Assembly: GCA_021158105.1 (NCBI GenBank)
Contig: JAGGVH010000038.1
Span: forward strand, 11,387-75,386
Origin: Candidatus Micrarchaeota archaeon
GTDB taxonomy: Archaea; Micrarchaeota; Micrarchaeia; Anstonellales; JAGGVH01
Direction of reading: 5' to 3'
DNA length: 64,000 nucleotides
Both the position numbers and the translations under genes were made by a program. A model generated the notes under the pieces. That model did not search any database. It was given only the letters and a program-made list of their open reading frames with translations, and was not told the DNA's origin. Numbering within the stretch: the stretch's first letter is position 1; each line of letters starts with the position of its first letter. Below, one piece after another: positions 49,344 to 60,030 of the stretch.

Positions 49344-50648
49344 TTATAGAAAGTGTGACAACCCAACAATCTTTGATTCGCCTCCCAAGATATATGAAAA
49401 ATACTTAATCGACGCCACCACTGCATACAATGACAATATTGGTGTTACTATTATATACATAGATAATCGCGCTGCCATGTGCTCCCAGCCACCATAATTA
49501 ACCATGAACGCTCCTATGCCTTTAAACATAGCAGCATCAATGAACGTGCGGAGCACAACATACCACATAACATCAATATAAAACTTAAACGTAAGCAATA
49601 CTACAAACCAAAACAAATTAACAACAAAACCTATGACAGTAGTTATTTTATCCCACAACCATTCAAAAACAGTTTCGGCACCAGTATCATTAACACTTTG
49701 TATTGTGTTATCAAACCTTCCAAATATCTGCAATGCACTCTTATAACTATCCAAATTTGTTAGGTCATTATAAAATACCTTACCCTCATCATTGGTTGTG
49801 AGGTATTTGGGATGGTCTGGATAATAAAAAAAGTGATAGTTTATCATATAAAACAACGGACCTATCAAAAACAATGCCAATGCCAATGCTGCAATAAACC
49901 CACCCAATCTTCGTGTTATATAAAAGTTACGCAATACCATGCCCAACACTAAGAACAAAGGAAATATGACTTGTGAAATTAAATCTAAAGCAAAATACTG
50001 TAAAATTACAATGACATATCCAGTCATAAGGATATCAAACAATTCCTGCATCTGTGCAATAAGTATTGTAAACCCTGCACCGGGATAACTTTTCCAACCA
50101 TACTGGTATGTCCCGAGCTGGATGTATGATTCCCTAAAAACCTTATACAAACTACCCTGGTAGAACACATATGATAATGAATCGCCCGCAAGACCCGCAA
50201 TGTCGTGAAGATTGCGCAGTGCTAAACACACATGGACTGGATAATAAACATATTTCTTGCCAGTGTCGCCTGCATATTCCTTTGTAATCAAACATGTATG
50301 ATTGACACTGTTCCATACTGCACCATGGGTCCAACCATCAGAAATATTATTATAAAGAAGAGTGTTTGCAGCATCGGCTTCTGGAAAAAACATTATGACT
50401 GAATTTTCTATCAACCCGTCTGGACCTAACAATATACCCAATGAAAAGAATATCAACCAGAAAAGTAATATGTTCATAAATGCCTGTCCAATCTCCTTTT
50501 TTGCAAACGCCTCCCACTTTGTATGCTTTAAAATGAGAGAAATAAAGTAAACTATAACAGTAATCGCAAGCGAAATGACAGTGCCAATAACCATTAATAA
50601 CGGCACATTGCCCCAATCAAACATATTCCACGGTTCAAACATTACCAC
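49344..50648 (-). CDS. Polytopic membrane protein B3 (counterpart of A3, without Cys-rich inserts)
   Basis: AFAKKEIGQ, LGMVLRNFYITRRLGG and ILGGE. Likely start ATG 50642. Confidence 0.7.
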   Translation of the reverse strand: MVMFEPWNMFDWGNVPLLMVIGTVISLAITVIVYFISLILKHTKWEAFAKKEIGQAFMNILLFWLIFFSLGILLGPDGLIENSVIMFFPEADAANTLLYNNISDGWTHGAVWNSVNHTCLITKEYAGDTGKKYVYYPVHVCLALRNLHDIAGLAGDSLSYVFYQGSLYKVFRESYIQLGTYQYGWKSYPGAGFTILIAQMQELFDILMTGYVIVILQYFALDLISQVIFPLFLVLGMVLRNFYITRRLGGFIAALALALFLIGPLFYMINYHFFYYPDHPKYLTTNDEGKVFYNDLTNLDSYKSALQIFGRFDNTIQSVNDTGAETVFEWLWDKITTVIGFVVNLFWFVVLLTFKFYIDVMWYVVLRTFIDAAMFKGIGAFMVNYGGWEHMAARLSMYIIVTPILSLYAVVASIKYFSYILGGESKIVGLSHFL

Positions 50649-50657
50649 ACCTTTTGA

Positions 50658-51611
50658 TTATACAAACGATTCAAACCATTTTGTAAACGCATTGATTGAT
50701 GTTGTTGTGACGATTATTGAAAACGTTGGGATGACAACGCCTTGAAATCCTATTATAGTAAACCATACTAAAACCTTATAAAACATATAAAAATATAAAT
50801 GAAACAACTTGTTAAGCCCGGGAATAAAATTTAATACGAGATACATCAAATCCCCCGGTGTTCCCCAAACATTGACAACTGATAAAATACTGGTATCAGA
50901 TATATCTTTAATTTGGTTATATATCACGCCACTTGAAATGATATTGGTCATTATATAACCATTTAATGCATACATTGATATAAAAATTACGTATGATGAC
51001 AAGCCAAGGGCAACCATAAAACTGCCAGCCCTGCGCGTCAGGTCAAAAAAACGCAATATCAATCCTGACGATATAAGGTATGGATAGAATGACATTATCG
51101 TCATGATAACCAACAACTGGACGTATAAACTGCCAAGGAGTGGCGAGATAAACATTATCATATAATTGATTAACCTGTCATACAACGTAAAATCCAATAT
51201 TGCCCCTGTGATGACTGACCCGACTGCAAAGGATACTATTGACTTCAAACTCTGGACAAGGCCAAGCAGACCTATCAACGTATTCAACAACAAAGGAACC
51301 TGATGAAAGATTAATGATGAAAGATAATTGTACACATAATCCTCAATCACTGGTGGTGATGATGGATTAATCATAAAAGAAATCAATCCCGGCGATACCC
51401 CTCTAACACCCATGAATATCATGATAAACAGCAGTATAAACCCAAACAGTAAAGAATTCATTATCGCAGTATGGAGGCGAACCTTTGCCATTGCGATGAG
51501 CTGAGGATTTTTTGTCATATTGCCCCAGTAATGTTCAATGACTGTATAACTAAGATAAATCATCAGTGCAACCACAAATATTATACTCGCCACCAGCATA
51601 CAACACACCAA
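50658..51611 (-). CDS. Polytopic membrane protein B2 (counterpart of A2)
   Basis: NPQLIAMAKV and GLILRFFDLTRRAGSFMVA. Short C-terminus like A2. Likely start ATG 51599. Confidence 0.7.
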   Translation of the reverse strand: MVCCMLVASIIFVVALMIYLSYTVIEHYWGNMTKNPQLIAMAKVRLHTAIMNSLLFGFILLFIMIFMGVRGVSPGLISFMINPSSPPVIEDYVYNYLSSLIFHQVPLLLNTLIGLLGLVQSLKSIVSFAVGSVITGAILDFTLYDRLINYMIMFISPLLGSLYVQLLVIMTIMSFYPYLISSGLILRFFDLTRRAGSFMVALGLSSYVIFISMYALNGYIMTNIISSGVIYNQIKDISDTSILSVVNVWGTPGDLMYLVLNFIPGLNKLFHLYFYMFYKVLVWFTIIGFQGVVIPTFSIIVTTTSINAFTKWFESFV

Positions 51612-52913
51612 TTAAACTTTTATGAACATCCTTCTCATTCTGCCAAATCCCAACAACCCTTCCTCACCACCGATCGCAAGGGAAATGTCTTTCATTGAAG
51701 TCAAGAAAATCATCACGTCTAAAATGAATAATAATAATGCAAGCCCGAACTTCTCAGCATACACAGTATATGATGTCAACAATGTTTTTATGTACGCATC
51801 CATTGAATTCCCAAGCCCTACCTTAAACAATGGCACAAAGAAAAATGAAGCAACCTTGACAAGTGCTTTTATTACATCAATCCCGCCTGCAAAATCTTTA
51901 AGTACATCTGATATACTATCCATTGCATAAACCAATCCCACACCTTGGGGTGTTGTTGATAAAATCTCCTCAAAATCGTGGAGCAATTTAGCATGGTTGG
52001 GTTGAGGGGGATTATTATAACTATCATAACCTATCCCGCCAGTATTGGGCCGTTCAGAACTCTCAGACACTGTTTTCAAATCATTTATTATATTCTTAGC
52101 ATCATTAATGTCATCATCTGACGGCATCTTCTGGTTCATCATATTTTTTGTGTATACCGAATAATCACCCAACATATAATCCGGACCAACTATTGCACTT
52201 ATGGGTTCGCCCCAAACATAATTATCAAGCACCATACTGTTTAGGATTAACAACAACGGATATATAAAAAAACCACAGATCGCAAACGCTATAACAGTCG
52301 ACCCTGTCTTTCGTGTTATGGGAAACGCACGCAACACTACTCCTAAAGGTATGAGATATCTCCACGAAAACACTCTAAAAAAGGTTAACAGCTGCTGTTG
52401 AAAATCTATCAATAGTATTCCAGACAAAGAAAGCAAAGAATACTTTTGAAGAAAAGTTAACAGGAATGAAAACCCTGCCAATGGTGAAACATGGTATATT
52501 AAAAAGTAAAAGCCTGTCCCGCTGAACATCCCAAAATAAAAGAGCGTTATCAAGCTTACCAAGAAGAAATTATAAAAATAATGGTGTAGCGAAACAAGAT
52601 AGATGCGTGCATAAGTAAAATAAAAAGGAGCGAGAATATTACCGCCCGTAGCTGGAAACCCGAACGCTGCACGGATGATAATATCAATGAATACTACTGC
52701 AGAACCCAACAACCCAATTATGAAAATGGTTTTTAATACCTCGCCCAGCTCAGTTATCGCCCACCCTTTCATCTCTGGATAATTGAGAAGCGAAGAAATC
52801 ATGTATGCAAGTGCAACACCAATAACACTAATCATAATGCCTACAAGTATCGCCACAACTGCAAACCCTGATATTATTGGCGTGTTGCCAAGAACCGCAT
52901 AACTTATATCCAA
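51612..52913 (-). CDS. Polytopic membrane protein B1 (counterpart of A1)
   Basis: GWAITELGE, IPLGVVLRAFPITRKTGSTVIA and AIGGE. TTG start after GGTGGT. Confidence 0.7.
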   Translation of the reverse strand: MDISYAVLGNTPIISGFAVVAILVGIMISVIGVALAYMISSLLNYPEMKGWAITELGEVLKTIFIIGLLGSAVVFIDIIIRAAFGFPATGGNILAPFYFTYARIYLVSLHHYFYNFFLVSLITLFYFGMFSGTGFYFLIYHVSPLAGFSFLLTFLQKYSLLSLSGILLIDFQQQLLTFFRVFSWRYLIPLGVVLRAFPITRKTGSTVIAFAICGFFIYPLLLILNSMVLDNYVWGEPISAIVGPDYMLGDYSVYTKNMMNQKMPSDDDINDAKNIINDLKTVSESSERPNTGGIGYDSYNNPPQPNHAKLLHDFEEILSTTPQGVGLVYAMDSISDVLKDFAGGIDVIKALVKVASFFFVPLFKVGLGNSMDAYIKTLLTSYTVYAEKFGLALLLFILDVMIFLTSMKDISLAIGGEEGLLGFGRMRRMFIKV

Positions 52914-54230: not shown

Positions 54231-55577
54231 ATGAAAGTAAGATTTAGTTTTAAAACCAACAAAAAAGATATTGTATTTAAAGGCGAATATGGCGAATCAT
54301 TATACAACCCAAAAACAAAAGAGCTTACTATAGGATTGGGTGATATTAAAGATGAGCCTCTTGATGCACACAAAATCAAACTGTTGGGCGGAGTAATCGG
54401 ACAAGTCGGCAGGAAATATAATGAAACAACATTTGAGATAACACTCCCAAAAAGTATTGATAAAAGTGAAGAGGTTGTGTGGGTTAGGGAGATTGAATTC
54501 GGAATAAGGGTTTATACTCATTTGATTTCGTTCAAAACTCATGATGAAAACAAAAGATATAAAGTAAAAAAGATTGTGTTCAACAAAAAAGTAAGAACAG
54601 ATGCAAAGATGTTGGCAGATGTAGTAAACATTACAAGGGACTGGGTTGACACGCCTTCTAACATGAAAACACCTGAACTGTTCGCACAGAAAGTTAAGAA
54701 TGCTTTGAAAGGTGTCGCACACGTTGAAATACTTGGTGAGAAAAAACTGAAAGGGGTTGGCATGAACGGGGTGCTCGCAGTCGGTCAGGGAAGCAAACAT
54801 CCTCCAAAGGTTATAATCGCTGAGTATGGCAAGGAATATAAAAAAAATGGAACGTATGCTTTTGTCGGCAAAGGCGTAACGTTTGATTCTGGCGGGATCT
54901 CATTAAAACCTTCAAAAAACATGGACGAGATGAAGAGGGACATGGCGGGTGCAGCTGCAGTGCTTGGTGGACTAATTGCCCTGGCACATGCAAACGTCAA
55001 AAAACATATCATTGCAGTTGCCGGTGTTGTTGAAAACATGCCGGACGGTGGTGCTCAAAGGCCTGGCGACATAATCAAGATGTTCAATGGGAAGACTGTT
55101 GAAGTGCTCAACACTGACGCTGAAGGAAGACTGGTCTTGGCAGACCTGTTATCATACACTGAGAAACGATTCAAACCAAGAATAATGCTTAATTTTGCAA
55201 CATTAACCGGTGCAGTCATTGTAGGGTTGGGACACAGGGTTGCAGGAGTGATGTCTAATGATCAGGATTTAGTGTGTGAAATACTGAATGCCGGAGAAGA
55301 AAGTGGGGACAGGTGTTGGCAATTGCCATTGTGGAATGAATATGCTGAGAACATTGAAAGCAAGATTGCAGACATTACAAACATAGGGAACCCGCCCGGA
55401 GCAGGCAGTATAATCGGTGGGATATTCTTAAAACAGTTTGTTGAAAGAACTAGGTGGGCACATGTTGACATTGCAGGGACTGCATGGTATGACCTGAAAA
55501 AGCCGTTCAGTTTTAGCGGTGCCACAGGGTTTGGTGTAAGATTGATTTATGAATTAGTAAAGAACCACTTATCATAA
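54231..55577 (+). CDS. pepA: Leucyl aminopeptidase (M17)
   Basis: VGKGVTFDSGG, MKRDMAGAA, NTDAEGRLVLAD, ATLTGA, WAHVDIAG. Confidence 0.95.
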   Translation: MKVRFSFKTNKKDIVFKGEYGESLYNPKTKELTIGLGDIKDEPLDAHKIKLLGGVIGQVGRKYNETTFEITLPKSIDKSEEVVWVREIEFGIRVYTHLISFKTHDENKRYKVKKIVFNKKVRTDAKMLADVVNITRDWVDTPSNMKTPELFAQKVKNALKGVAHVEILGEKKLKGVGMNGVLAVGQGSKHPPKVIIAEYGKEYKKNGTYAFVGKGVTFDSGGISLKPSKNMDEMKRDMAGAAAVLGGLIALAHANVKKHIIAVAGVVENMPDGGAQRPGDIIKMFNGKTVEVLNTDAEGRLVLADLLSYTEKRFKPRIMLNFATLTGAVIVGLGHRVAGVMSNDQDLVCEILNAGEESGDRCWQLPLWNEYAENIESKIADITNIGNPPGAGSIIGGIFLKQFVERTRWAHVDIAGTAWYDLKKPFSFSGATGFGVRLIYELVKNHLS

Positions 55578-55629
55578 ATAGGGATAGATAAATAGCAACA
55601 TATTTAAACTAATAAAATCATAACATAAA

Positions 55630-55707
55630 TTGTGATGATCGAGGTGATCTCTGAACTCTTTGCCATGTATGCAAAGGGTTGTGATGAATGACGTGCGGTC
55701 TGAACAT
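55630..55707 (+). ncRNA. Box C/D methylation-guide sRNA (dual guide)
   Basis: C box GTGATGA (55632), 12-nt guide, D' CTGA (55651), hairpin ACTCTTTGC/GCAAAGGGT, C' GTGATGA (55681), 12-nt guide, D CTGA (55700). Intergenic, with TTTAAA about 25 nt upstream. Confidence 0.88.
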
Positions 55708-55758: not shown

Positions 55759-56670
55759 ATGCGGTTGGACAACAATGATTACAAGATATTGGATTTACTG
55801 TCCAAAAATTCTAAGTTAAGGATTAAAGAAATTGCCGGGAAACTTAAATTAAAAATGCCAACTGTAGCATATCACTTATCAAAACTATCAAAACATTTTG
55901 TCAGACAACCAATAATAGATTATTATAAGTTTGGTGTTACACCTTACAATTTCTATATAAAACTTAAAGATTTTGAAGATGAGACAAAAGAAGAAATTGA
56001 AGAATTCTCAAAAAAGTTTAAAGAAGTTTATAAGGTATCACATTTAAACGGAACGTTTGATATCATGATAAGTCTGTATATCAGAAATAATGAATCATTC
56101 GCTAAATTTTATGTTCAACTCTTAAAAAAATTCAGCAAGAAAATGATATTCCGGGACATTACCATACCATACAAAAAGATAATCATAACAGGAAACATAT
56201 TCGGTACAACATCAAACAACCCAATATTAATCGCTCCAAACCGCGCTTTACAGCTATCAAAAAACGAAACAAAAATGCTGGACGTGTTTACCACACTAAA
56301 AACAACAAAACAAATAAGCATTGAAACACAACTTGACGAAAAAACCATACGGCGATACATCAGAAACAATGAAAAGAAAAAGGTTATATTGGGTTACACT
56401 ATAAACATCCTGCCCAACCTTGAACTGTATGAAAAGTATTTTGTCAGGTTTAATGTTGGAAATAAAAACGACCTGGTTGCACAGCTCGGCAGGACAAAAG
56501 GGGTAATGGCAATCGAATTCCCAATAGGCAAGTGGGACGTTGAAGCATATGTATTGGCAAAGTCGCATTATGAGTTATCAAAGATAATAAAAAACACAAA
56601 AAGTGCAGTGCCTTCAATATCAAAATATGACATATTATACATAGAAAAGGAAGTGATAAACAATATCTAA
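55759..56670 (+). CDS. Tandem (double) Lrp/AsnC-family transcriptional regulator
   Basis: Two HTH plus RAM-like units: LDNNDYKILDLL...GTFDIMI and LSKNETKML...GKWDVEA. Confidence 0.8.
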   Translation: MRLDNNDYKILDLLSKNSKLRIKEIAGKLKLKMPTVAYHLSKLSKHFVRQPIIDYYKFGVTPYNFYIKLKDFEDETKEEIEEFSKKFKEVYKVSHLNGTFDIMISLYIRNNESFAKFYVQLLKKFSKKMIFRDITIPYKKIIITGNIFGTTSNNPILIAPNRALQLSKNETKMLDVFTTLKTTKQISIETQLDEKTIRRYIRNNEKKKVILGYTINILPNLELYEKYFVRFNVGNKNDLVAQLGRTKGVMAIEFPIGKWDVEAYVLAKSHYELSKIIKNTKSAVPSISKYDILYIEKEVINNI

Positions 56671-56757
56671 ACGTTTAATCATCCTTAAAAATTCGCAAAG
56701 GTTTATATTTTAATTGTTAAATAAACATTTCAATAAACAATTTTTGAGGTGTTAATA

Positions 56758-59751
56758 ATGAATATTGCCGACAAAGAAATAGAACAACTGAAAAAATGGG
56801 AAAAGGATAAGGCATATGACAAAGTTAATAACAAAAATAAAGAAGGTGAAGAATGGTATTTCTGCGACGGGCCACCGTACGCAACAGGTCAAATGCATCC
56901 CGGGACTGCTTATAACAAATGTGCAAAAGATGCGATATTGAGATATAAACGATGGAGGGGGTATAATGTATTAGCACGGGCGGGGTATGACACTCATGGT
57001 CTGCCGATTGAGGTTAAAGTCGAGAAAGATTTGGGTGTCAAACACAAAAATGATATTGAAAAGATAGGTGTTGAAAAATTTATCAAGAAATGTAAAGAGT
57101 TCGCAACTGAACATTTATCAAAAATGTCAAAAGATTTTATCAGGGCAGGAGTATGGATGGATTTTGACGACCCATACCTTACATACACAAGGGAATACAT
57201 TGAACCTGTATGGGGCGCAATAAAAAAGATTAATGATAACGGGTTGTTATATCGTGGGTCATCAGTCTTGCCATATTGCCCAAGGTGTGAAACGCCACTG
57301 GCAAATTATGAATTGGAATATAGTATGATAAAAAGCCCCAGCATCTTTGTAAAGTTTAAGGTCAAAGATACTGAAAACGAATATTTGATAATATGGACGA
57401 CTACGCCGTGGACATTAGTTGCAAACATGGCAGTAATGGTCCACCCCAGCGAAACATATGTAAAAGTCAAACCTGATGATAAGGATGAAGTATGGATTAT
57501 TGCAAAAGCCAGGATGGAGCACTTGTCAGAACTGTTAAACATAAATCTTACAGTGCTGAGTGAAATGAGCGGGAAACGCATTGACGGAACAAAGTATGAA
57601 TCACCGTTAGGCGTCAGGCCAGAAGTTGAACGCAGGGTAGTATTATCTGATGAATATGTTACAATGGATGAAGGTTCTGGGTTGGTCCACTGTGCACCGG
57701 GCCACGGACCAGAGGATTACATTATAGGAAAGAGGTATGATATTGAACCGTTTTCACCTGTTGACGACAATGGAAATTTTACTGAAGCTGCTGGGAAGTA
57801 TAAAGGCAAGAATGTTCTTGAAATTAATGATGAGATCATAAATGAATTGAAAGATAAAGGTATACTCCTGCACAGTGGCACGATTGAACATAGGTATCCC
57901 CATTGTTGGAGGTGTAAAACACCATTAATATTCCGAACTACTAAGCAATGGTTTGCAAAGATAAGCGATGTTAAAGAGAAAATGATTGACGAGATAGATA
58001 AGGTAAACTGGATACCAGACTTTGCAAGAACACGATTTTCTGATTTTGTATCAAACGCTCCCGACTGGTGCATTTCACGGCAGAGATACTGGGGCATACC
58101 AATACCAATCTGGGTAAACGAGGATGATGAAACAGATTACATTGTATTGGGAAGTTTTGATGAGTTGCCTGAAGAGATTGAAGATGTTCACAGGCCGTAT
58201 GTTGACAAAGTTATCATTGAAAAGGATGGAAAAAAATACAAAAGAGTTCCAGACGTGTTGGACGTATGGATAGACTCAGGAAACGCTGTGTGGTCCGGGT
58301 TGCACCCAGAATTACGAAAAGAGAAGAACAAAACACAATTTATCATTGAAGGTAAGGACCAAACCCGTGGCTGGTTCTATTCATTATTAGGCATGGGGGT
58401 CATGACACAAGGGTATGCACCTTATGAAAGTATTATGATGCACGGGTTTTTTGTTGATGAGAAAGGAGAAAAGATGAGCAAAAGTATGGGCAATTTTATA
58501 CCGTTTGATGAGATTGTTGAAAAGTACGGTGCTGATGCGTTCAGGGTATGGGCATTGTCATCAGTGCCATGGAATGATTTAGTGTTTTCATGGGGAGGAA
58601 TAAAAGAAGCATATTCTTTTGTGAACACTGTTGACAACATTGCAGTATACCTCAAACGTTTTGCAGATGACGTTCCATATGAAACGCCAATAGTCAACGA
58701 ACTGACAAACATTGAAGACAGATGGTTGATTTCAAAGTTTAACCAAACACTCAAAAAATGCGAAGAGGAATACGATAAATACCATTTCCACACTGCATCA
58801 CGCGAGATAGTTAAATTCATATTGGACGATATCAGCAGATTTTACATGAAACTTATAAAATCAAGGAATGACAAAGATGGGTTGAAAGTATTAAAATACA
58901 TATTTATAGAATCCCTCAAAATGTTAAACCCTATCGCGCCTTTTGTAACTGAAAGAGCTTATGCCAACATAATCCCAAATCACAAAGAAACCATCTGCTT
59001 AGAAGATTGGCCTGCACCAGTAGGCGTTGCAGACAACACATTACTGTCAGACATGGAAATCATTAAAGAGATATTCCCTGAAATAATCTCTGCAAGACAC
59101 AAGATAGGAATAAAACTAAGATGGCCGATCGACACTGTTAAAATATACCCATACGACGACATAGTATCAACTGCTGTTGAAAGATTGAGTAACATCATTA
59201 AAGTAATGGCAAACATCCACTCAGTTGAAACTGTAAAAGAACCGTTAGGTAAAATAAAAATACAATATGATTCATCATTGCCAAAAGAAGAAATTGAAAA
59301 GATTGATCATCTCGTTAAAGAAAACATGTATGAACTTGAAAAGAAGCTTAACGTTGGAAAGAGTGTAACAATAGAAGATAAAAAGATATCACCAGAATAT
59401 ATAACAATAAAAGAAGAAGCTGATGACTATTATGTAAACTATTTCTCAGGCGGAAAAATCTATGTGCACACAAAACTTCCAAAAGACGTCATTGAAGAAG
59501 GCATCGCACGGGAAGTGATAAGGAGGCTGCAGTCAATGAGGAAGGAGCTAAAACTCATTGAAAAGAACAAGATAAATGTCATCTATTCTGCTGACGATGA
59601 CGTAACCAAGGCAATTGACAAATTCAAAGACATGATAACAACCAAGGTAAACGCAGTTAAATTTGATAAAGGTAAACCAAAAGGTAATGAATGGAAGATT
59701 CAGGGGATTAAGAACGAATACATATTTAAAGCTGAAATACAAAAAATATAA
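56758..59751 (+). CDS. ileS: Isoleucyl-tRNA synthetase (archaeal/eukaryote type)
   Basis: DGPPYATG, HPGT (HIGH), GYDTHGLPIE, WTTTPWTL, DWCISRQRYWG, EGKDQTRGWF, KMSKS. Confidence 0.97.
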   Translation: MNIADKEIEQLKKWEKDKAYDKVNNKNKEGEEWYFCDGPPYATGQMHPGTAYNKCAKDAILRYKRWRGYNVLARAGYDTHGLPIEVKVEKDLGVKHKNDIEKIGVEKFIKKCKEFATEHLSKMSKDFIRAGVWMDFDDPYLTYTREYIEPVWGAIKKINDNGLLYRGSSVLPYCPRCETPLANYELEYSMIKSPSIFVKFKVKDTENEYLIIWTTTPWTLVANMAVMVHPSETYVKVKPDDKDEVWIIAKARMEHLSELLNINLTVLSEMSGKRIDGTKYESPLGVRPEVERRVVLSDEYVTMDEGSGLVHCAPGHGPEDYIIGKRYDIEPFSPVDDNGNFTEAAGKYKGKNVLEINDEIINELKDKGILLHSGTIEHRYPHCWRCKTPLIFRTTKQWFAKISDVKEKMIDEIDKVNWIPDFARTRFSDFVSNAPDWCISRQRYWGIPIPIWVNEDDETDYIVLGSFDELPEEIEDVHRPYVDKVIIEKDGKKYKRVPDVLDVWIDSGNAVWSGLHPELRKEKNKTQFIIEGKDQTRGWFYSLLGMGVMTQGYAPYESIMMHGFFVDEKGEKMSKSMGNFIPFDEIVEKYGADAFRVWALSSVPWNDLVFSWGGIKEAYSFVNTVDNIAVYLKRFADDVPYETPIVNELTNIEDRWLISKFNQTLKKCEEEYDKYHFHTASREIVKFILDDISRFYMKLIKSRNDKDGLKVLKYIFIESLKMLNPIAPFVTERAYANIIPNHKETICLEDWPAPVGVADNTLLSDMEIIKEIFPEIISARHKIGIKLRWPIDTVKIYPYDDIVSTAVERLSNIIKVMANIHSVETVKEPLGKIKIQYDSSLPKEEIEKIDHLVKENMYELEKKLNVGKSVTIEDKKISPEYITIKEEADDYYVNYFSGGKIYVHTKLPKDVIEEGIAREVIRRLQSMRKELKLIEKNKINVIYSADDDVTKAIDKFKDMITTKVNAVKFDKGKPKGNEWKIQGIKNEYIFKAEIQKI

Positions 59752-59752
59752 C

Positions 59753-60030
59753 TGGCACGGGGAGGATCGCTGACGGTGTCCGCATGGATGCTGAGGAAGG
59801 TCCACCCACTGACCCGTTTACTAGAACGGGTAAAAAACAGGCGCCGCAAGGCACGACCGGGAGACTGGTCAGAAGAGGAACAGAAACGCTCCCTGCTCGT
59901 GTGCACTATGAAGACCGCTGAGGTTGCACGTGATGGGATGAAACGGCCTCTTCTCTGTTGCAGTGCAAGCCCTTTCGGGCGCGTAGTATAATGCGATCAC
60001 GAACAAAAGGTGGCCTACTACCCCGTGCCA
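59753..60030 (+). ncRNA. rnpB: RNase P RNA
   Basis: P1 TGGCACGGGG/CCCCGTGCCA, P2 GATCGC/GCGATC, P4 halves GAGGAAGGTCCACC and AACAAAAGGTGGCCTACT, and conserved ACAGAAAC and GAAACGG. GC-rich island. Confidence 0.93.

Follow-up and report, generated by a model that had tools for sequence, protein, structure and literature searches.

A Micrarchaeota box C/D sRNA pairs with the 16S decoding strand and the anti-Shine-Dalgarno tail through one contiguous and one recurrently mismatched guide

The window that we analyzed, a stretch of 64,000 nucleotides from a Candidatus Micrarchaeota genome, contains the gene of a dual-guide box C/D sRNA. Its D' guide is complementary to the 3' tail of 16S rRNA, including most of the anti-Shine-Dalgarno (anti-SD) sequence, and its D guide is complementary to the strand of helix 44 (h44) at the decoding site. 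Homologs of this sRNA are widespread in the order, and within the genomes searched, the D guide of the anti-SD-joined family is never perfect. At a probability of roughly 60%, we read the sRNA as a methylation guide that binds the two ends of the h44-h45 region for a short time, selection favoring a releasable hold.

The gene occupies positions 55632 to 55703 of the window on the forward strand, and all four boxes are on consensus. The C box (55632 to 55638) and the C' box (55681 to 55687) match RUGAUGA perfectly, and the D' box (55651 to 55654) and the D box (55700 to 55703) both read CUGA. They follow each other in the order C, D', C', D, and the spacers that hold the D' guide (55639 to 55650) and the D guide (55688 to 55699) are both 12 nt long, a length given as typical of archaeal C/D sRNAs in the accessible text of Yang et al. 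(PMC7229835). Judged by its sequence, the locus is a member of the archaeal box C/D sRNA class. The TGATGA core of the C box is unchanged in six of six aligned close homologs; the D' box is CTGA in 58 of 107 parsed homologs and degenerate in the other copies. An AT-rich, TATA-like motif at 55603 to 55609 (+), 30 nt before the C box, may serve the sRNA gene as an archaeal TATA box. In the 71 homologs with enough upstream DNA, hits to such a motif, which can score twice where they overlap, peak at -35 to -31 (50 hits, against 14 in the next bin), and the motif is also visible in an alignment of homologs. We infer that the sRNA is transcribed from its own promoter. No Rfam family reached its gathering score on the sRNA, the strongest likeness being a weak one to sR2 (17.7 bits versus a gathering score of 42), and none claims the sRNA or the 20 loci from the guide scan.

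The gene is flanked upstream by a leucyl (M17) aminopeptidase gene (54231 to 55577, +; Pfam PF00883, E 1.5e-118) and downstream by a gene for an Lrp/AsnC-type regulator (55759 to 56670, +; Pfam PF13412 and PF01037 over cut-off). Elsewhere in the window, an archaeal RNase P RNA (59754 to 60029, +; Rfam RF00373, 126.9 bits) starts 3 nt downstream of a class I tRNA-synthetase gene (56749 to 59751), and three consecutive genes for multi-pass membrane proteins of similar make-up lie at 49344 to 52913 (-). The host genome measures 0.96 Mb. As no rRNA, 16S included, is assembled in this 88.8% complete genome, the targets of the sRNA were judged on the rRNA of its relatives; ARAGORN, run without intron search, reports only three tRNAs in it.

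The 16S rRNA of these relatives ends in AGAUCACCUC in 25 of 25 among the ends listed, and the D' guide consequently makes 10 contiguous Watson-Crick pairs (10/10) with positions 1529 to 1538, G55646 at position +5 facing C1533. This exceeds the run of at least nine contiguous Watson-Crick pairs through +5 by which we judged C/D guides. Positions follow E. coli numbering, which we verified with the E. coli line of the Dennis supplement and with the published sR13 sites. The same stretch is the best site for the D' guide in the 16S and 23S of three relatives, and none of 300 shuffled versions equaled it against same-genus 16S and 23S. The original prediction, that this guide targets the tail with C1533 at the methylated position, is thus borne out in the relatives' 16S. 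From this pairing, the D' guide is likely to direct 2'-O-methylation of C1533.

The D guide presents a different picture. The 1400 region of 16S is ACCGCCCGUCA in 27 of 29 relatives' 16S and in all three further 16S that were found when five genomes were searched. Against this sequence, 10 of 11 possible pairs form with positions 1398 to 1408; G55695 (+5) faces C1402, and U55694 (+6) is mismatched to C1403. The guide thus pairs as five pairs, a U·C mismatch, and five more pairs, short of nine contiguous ones. The target had been foreseen correctly as 1398 to 1408, but the complementarity was written with a bracketed A, which is a C in the rRNA; that the lineage's 16S might carry an A at 1403 is rejected, as 0 of 29 relatives do. 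Shuffled D guides did as well in 8 of 300 cases (same-genus 16S and 23S), and by itself the D match has only moderate significance. It is the best or near-best site of this guide in the relatives' rRNA; G·U pairs give one 23S site, in relative G003, a slightly higher score. None of 33 rRNA loci, flanks included, contains the perfect 9-mer target of the D core; its one occurrence elsewhere in the genome is on contig C11, where a rough estimate predicts about one for the genome. For the other D cores of the family, perfect 9-mer targets are scattered hits, one of which is a 16S variant (G024) discussed below.

The family was searched for with the perfect C1402 guide pattern, allowing up to two mismatches, in 176 genomes of the order. 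It is present in 140 of them, mostly in single copy, with 148 matches compared to 8 for a reversed control, the latter in 7 of 176 genomes. None of the 148 matches had zero mismatches. Two rows did show a perfect core; their boxes are broken, the host genomes also carry a normal copy, and we read them as chance. A second order has the pattern in 23 of 121 genomes, again never perfect, a tally that includes one unpublished genome (G306) excluded from all parsing. The Nanobdellota are at about control level (3 of 151 genomes). Since the genomes are related, these counts carry no p-value and overstate independence. They nevertheless refute the reading, to which we assign a negligible chance, that the match is a coincidence or an SD-like motif preceding a short open reading frame. 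The Rfam result and the shuffles of the D guide would be compatible with a coincidence, but 140 of 176 genomes versus 7 with a control hit, and four boxes in register, are not, and the nearest ATG, at a distance of 18 nt, starts a frame of just eight codons. The prediction of a dual-guide C/D sRNA aimed at these two 16S targets is supported.

For closer analysis, 60 further copies, a subset spread over genera, were fetched, and 125 loci were parsed into 124 rows, 107 of them with both halves. The 17 dropped rows comprise one likely chance hit, one contig end, four with linkers reaching beyond the parsing range, two degenerate copies, two with a different D' guide, and seven copies from the second order with A at D' position +5. 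With the common 16S sequence as reference, every one of the 107 parsed copies has an imperfect D guide, the mismatch lying at +6 in 44, at +5 in 34, at +7 in 18, and at +3 in 11. Position +5 is G in 73 of the 107, and 37 have a D guide core identical to that of the host's copy. Eight metagenome copies, some of which duplicate genome copies, are all imperfect in the D guide as well. Two loci (L189 in G010 and L190 in G174) have the same D guide and a D' guide switched to another sequence, which by eye pairs with 16S 1493 to 1499 on the opposite strand of the top of h44. A further locus (L087 in G276) joins the anti-SD D' guide to a D guide for A1409 and is nearer to sR13 of Nanoarchaeum equitans.

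In all 107 parsed copies the D' guide has Watson-Crick pairs at positions 2 to 7 and G at +5, a core that the parser required. Position 1 is paired in only 49% of homologs. A suspected covariation of U at this position with a lineage-specific A1529 was dropped, given that low figure and the occurrence of the U in other archaeal groups as well. The seven second-order copies (L202, L203, L205, L211, L212, L217, and L218, of the 17 rows dropped by the parser) carry an A at +5, mismatched to C1533. Cm1533 is therefore not universal, and these copies may be without methylation at the tail site.

The overlap of the D' target with most of the anti-SD raises the possibility that the sRNA masks the anti-SD of the mature 30S subunit and thereby regulates or silences translation. 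In the host's copy the guide covers 7 of the 8 bases 1532 to 1539, and the host does use SD pairing: 109 of 582 long open reading frames have an SD match of at least 6 nt upstream, versus 1 of 582 coding controls. Most homologs, however, pair with only six to nine tail bases and reach no further than 1535 to 1537, positions 10 to 12 of the D' guide being paired in 24 to 30%. The conserved part is centered on +5, as in a methylation guide, and the D target at 1398 to 1408 is base-paired in the mature subunit. Masking is thus a very improbable function.

Could a C1402 guide in this lineage be perfect at all? The same search in Thermoproteota gave 41 matches in 35 of 201 genomes, and 18 of the 41 are perfect or G·U-only, 5 with a CUGA box next to a perfect core and 13 differing by G·U alone. 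Among the matches listed, these guides have no anti-SD guide as a partner, and three genomes outside Micrarchaeota carry their C1533 and C1402 guides on separate sRNAs. Within the order, a guide for 23S U2552 served as control. Its pattern occurs in 161 of 176 genomes, with zero mismatches in 53 of 150 among the matches listed (there were 121 further matches), and it pairs at nine positions with three 23S genes. Therefore, Micrarchaeota guides can be perfect, and so can C1402 guides elsewhere. The U2552 guide is the D' guide of a second C/D sRNA of the host genome, located outside the window (contig C38, position 16441, +) and near-universal in the order. Its linker is 31 nt long. Its D guide, for U2504, shows an A·C mismatch at +8 when compared with three 23S genes; the C1402 sRNA is therefore not the only one with an imperfect guide. 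A third credible C/D sRNA (contig C22, position 3163, -) has candidate 23S and 16S targets, and C/D sRNAs appear to be few in this genome.

Two rRNA variants speak to the target itself. In G004, where 16S has C1400U, the D guide carries an A at +3 and retains its mismatch at +6; in G024, with C1404U, it has A at +7 and keeps its mismatch at +3. That the guide matches both variants supports the predicted target, within two limits: binned 16S genes can be misassigned, and the covariations are not exclusive, because A at +3 or +7 is also found opposite C in other genomes (G039 and G036). Both variants (L002 and L004) are in themselves substitutions at near-invariant bases of the decoding region, and the 16S of G024 also differs near position 1497. 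Many 16S genes of the order (L019 to L029 and others) are well over 1.5 kb long or split, suggesting introns. The peptidyl-transferase-center region of 23S is ACAUCGCUGUCGGC in all three of G001, G003, and G039 (L092, L090, and L091), which departs near 2499 and 2503 from the usual sequence.

Whether C1402 is methylated is less certain than the site itself. The prediction that C1402 lies at +5 holds for the host's copy, but Cm1402 is uncertain because the D guide always has a mismatch, and in 34 of 107 copies the mismatch is on C1402 itself. By the sequence of their guides, these 34 copies, with A at +5, cannot direct canonical methylation of C1402. In the present organism +5 is a Watson-Crick pair, and in an engineered, non-specific archaeal half-complex mismatches at positions 3 to 5 lowered activity and more distant ones did not (PMC1635284). 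On these grounds we incline, if only slightly, to the view that the D guide probably still methylates C1402 here. The equivalent nucleotide of Pyrococcus abyssi carries the modification (Cm1376; Coureux et al., PMC7005279), which according to the available Table 4 of that paper occurs in all three domains.

The sRNA might instead be no more than a regular double methylation guide that serves C1402 and C1533 without a role in folding. The mismatch would then ease release of a GC-rich product or represent drift, and the lineages mismatched at +5 would have lost Cm1402 or make it non-canonically. Consistent with this are the G at +5, kept by 73 of 107 D guides and by every parsed D' guide (in the latter as a parser requirement), the occurrence of Cm1402 in all three domains, and an RsmI-type enzyme over cut-off in none of five genomes, the host's included, a result that agrees with our preferred reading as well. 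In addition, over-long pairing inhibits C/D ribonucleoproteins (RNPs) in vitro, as described in the accessible portion of PMC7229835. Drift should, however, sometimes yield a perfect guide, which it did in 0 of 148 matches although perfect C1402 guides exist in Thermoproteota, and 34 of 107 copies keep the rest of the D guide in spite of a mismatched +5. We therefore regard methylation without a folding role as rather unlikely.

The duplex energies suggest what the mismatch might do. The D guide pairs with -14.3 kcal/mol where a perfect D guide would reach -21.5, and the D' guide has -14.9. Hence, the mismatch would lower the very GC-rich D duplex to about the strength of the D' duplex. The two strengths do not covary across the family (Spearman -0.08, p 0.41); compensation between them was not seen, and a fixed total of D and D' strength is unsupported.

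The D' and C' boxes are separated by a 9-bp hairpin (55655 to 55679, +) with a fold z score of -3.2, and none of 200 shuffles was as stable. It follows the D' box directly, and 3 nt separate its end from the GA of the C' box. A stem placed in this way is the canonical stem of a kink-turn (K-turn), here the internal one at C'/D'. Among the homologs, 54 of 87 distinct linkers form their first three base pairs in K-turn register, versus 1 to 6 of 87 in slid registers, and the pairs are of the types G-C, C-G, A-U, and G-U. The linker measures 3 to 88 nt, with at least 10 nt in 90 of 107 copies and fewer than 10 nt in 17. The hairpin had been called unusual; it is real and conserved, but ordinary in kind, being a canonical C'/D' stem of a sort that is common in homologs, and the second sRNA has a long linker too. 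In one group of homologs (family f8, L140 to L180), the linker has expanded to branched structures of 75 to 88 nt. An internal-loop motif is common to 21 of the 87 distinct linkers and is possibly a protein-binding site.

Such linkers invite the alternative that the sRNA brings in or places a base-modifying enzyme at C1400 to C1404, by analogy with eukaryotic U13/snR45, the mismatch exposing the base and the enlarged linker binding the protein. The lengths of up to 88 nt and the shared internal loop would fit this, as would the base modifications at or beside C1402 and C1404 that are known in archaea, as far as the accessible parts of PMC5389701 and PMC7005279 go. Set against it, the mismatch shifts among +3, +5, +6, and +7, a poor fit to one fixed modified base, the host's copy has a plain hairpin only, and 17 of 107 linkers are shorter than 10 nt. 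We consider enzyme recruitment improbable.

Our preferred reading, a methylation guide with a releasable hold, can be formulated as follows. The sRNA would assemble with L7Ae, Nop5, and fibrillarin, the genes of which are all over cut-off in the host genome. The RNP would then bind immature 16S at both ends of the 3' minor domain (1398 to 1408 and 1529 to 1538), looping out h44 and h45. As the two sites are the ends of this domain and the 109-nt segment between them folds as h44 and h45, both could be bound at once. The D' guide would direct methylation of C1533 and the D guide, probably, still that of C1402 in this organism, while weakened rather than perfect D pairing would be selected across the group, so that the RNP might keep the top of h44 open temporarily before releasing it. 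A role in 16S folding, as originally proposed, is plausible. We have also considered, more tentatively, a lineage-wide version that we do not expect to hold in full: the sRNA would be a clamp for late assembly of the small subunit that acts beside KsgA and requires one mismatch at a free position, perfect pairing to the decoding strand being selected against, and some lineages would have given up C1402 methylation, and a few C1533 methylation, while binding was kept. Replacement of KsgA by the sRNA is rejected. KsgA is present in five of five genomes tested, in the host as a full-length PF00398 match of 143 bits, and the published rationale that such an sRNA replaces KsgA is therefore inapplicable here.

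Whether archaeal C/D guides act as folding chaperones or merely place methyl groups has so far been argued mostly from single cases. The present family amounts to a natural set of variants, with the mismatch at +3, +5, +6, or +7 and never none, at a universally important site of the ribosome, and makes the chaperone question testable with standard reconstituted RNPs and short rRNA substrates. If the clamp reading is true, it would be a natural, replicated case of archaeal C/D RNPs kept for tuned, transient pairing beyond the methyl group. Furthermore, guide searches that require perfect pairing would miss C1402 guides of this kind. Missed imperfect guides may explain the orphan Cm1402 of N. 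equitans, which was measured there and has no candidate guide in the available text of the report (PMC5389701); in the accessible list of 26 N. equitans sRNAs we saw no clear candidate either. No paper on a Micrarchaeota C/D sRNA was found in the literature that we searched; subscription papers and bioRxiv supplements, outside the search, may hold modification maps. The accessible parts of Breuer et al. (PMC7994747), Bourgeois et al. (PMC11698992), and Yang et al. (PMC7229835) do not report this sRNA.

Several known systems share one feature or another with it. The Rfam families sR1, sR2, and snoPyro_CD have the same box architecture but different guides and score far below gathering. The predicted tail site is that of Cm1533 in Ignicoccus hospitalis, where the modification is measured and no guide is assigned in the available text (Seistrup et al., PMC5389701). 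The family thus supplies the sequence of a guide for it that is widespread: the same D' guide is found in C/D sRNAs of Desulfurococcales, Bathyarchaeia, Asgard, and Thermoplasmata genomes, although its partner D guide is unrelated outside Micrarchaeota, and a stretch similar to it is carried by sR305 of I. hospitalis. Like sR15 and sR17 of N. equitans, listed in the accessible Table 3 of Dennis et al. 2015 as proposed rRNA chaperones, the sRNA has two targets more than 100 nt apart that are close in structure; those two join both strands of one helix, whereas the present pair of targets is absent from that table. On the D side, the nearest likeness is to Pyrobaculum sR25, with a conserved +5 mismatch at C1368 (Lui et al. 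2018, PMC6009581, as available), and to sR135 of Thermoproteus tenax, both of which have a D guide with a conserved mismatch on the C1402 region. The guide of sR135 has the same A-at-+5 core as 34 of 107 Micrarchaeota copies, and in the accessible material of Dennis et al. (PMC4644070) the same C1402 site bears an asterisk and none of the listed sRNAs has a perfect core. The sR25 mismatch is fixed at +5, on C1402, and the partner guide of sR25 and sR135 is directed to a nearby site in the h43 region (alignment position C1349). Here, +5 is G, the mismatch is at +6 and moves within the group, with A at +5 in 34 of 107 relatives, and the D' guide targets the 3' tail.

The closest parallel is sR13 of N. 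equitans, whose sequence is given in supplement 1 of Dennis et al. 2015 (PMC4644070, available in part). It guides Am1408 and Am1534, and an RNA-based maturation checkpoint that replaces KsgA has been proposed for it in the accessible text of Seistrup et al. (PMC5389701). The idea of a guide that pairs with the h44 strand and the anti-SD tail has therefore been published already; the combination of C1402 plus C1533 with an apparently required, movable mismatch sets the present sRNA apart. Both are dual-guide C/D sRNAs on the h44 decoding strand and the anti-SD tail, and sR13 is proposed to delay or order the folding of h44 and h45. In sR13, however, A1408 is served by the D' guide and A1534 by the D guide, whereas here C1533 is served by D' and C1402 by D, in swapped order. 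The sR13 sites are measured and the present ones predicted, and N. equitans is without KsgA (RsmA), whereas the host of the present sRNA has it. With neither the A1408 and A1534 guides nor a KsgA-free host, the sRNA described here works like sR13 yet stands outside the sR13 family.
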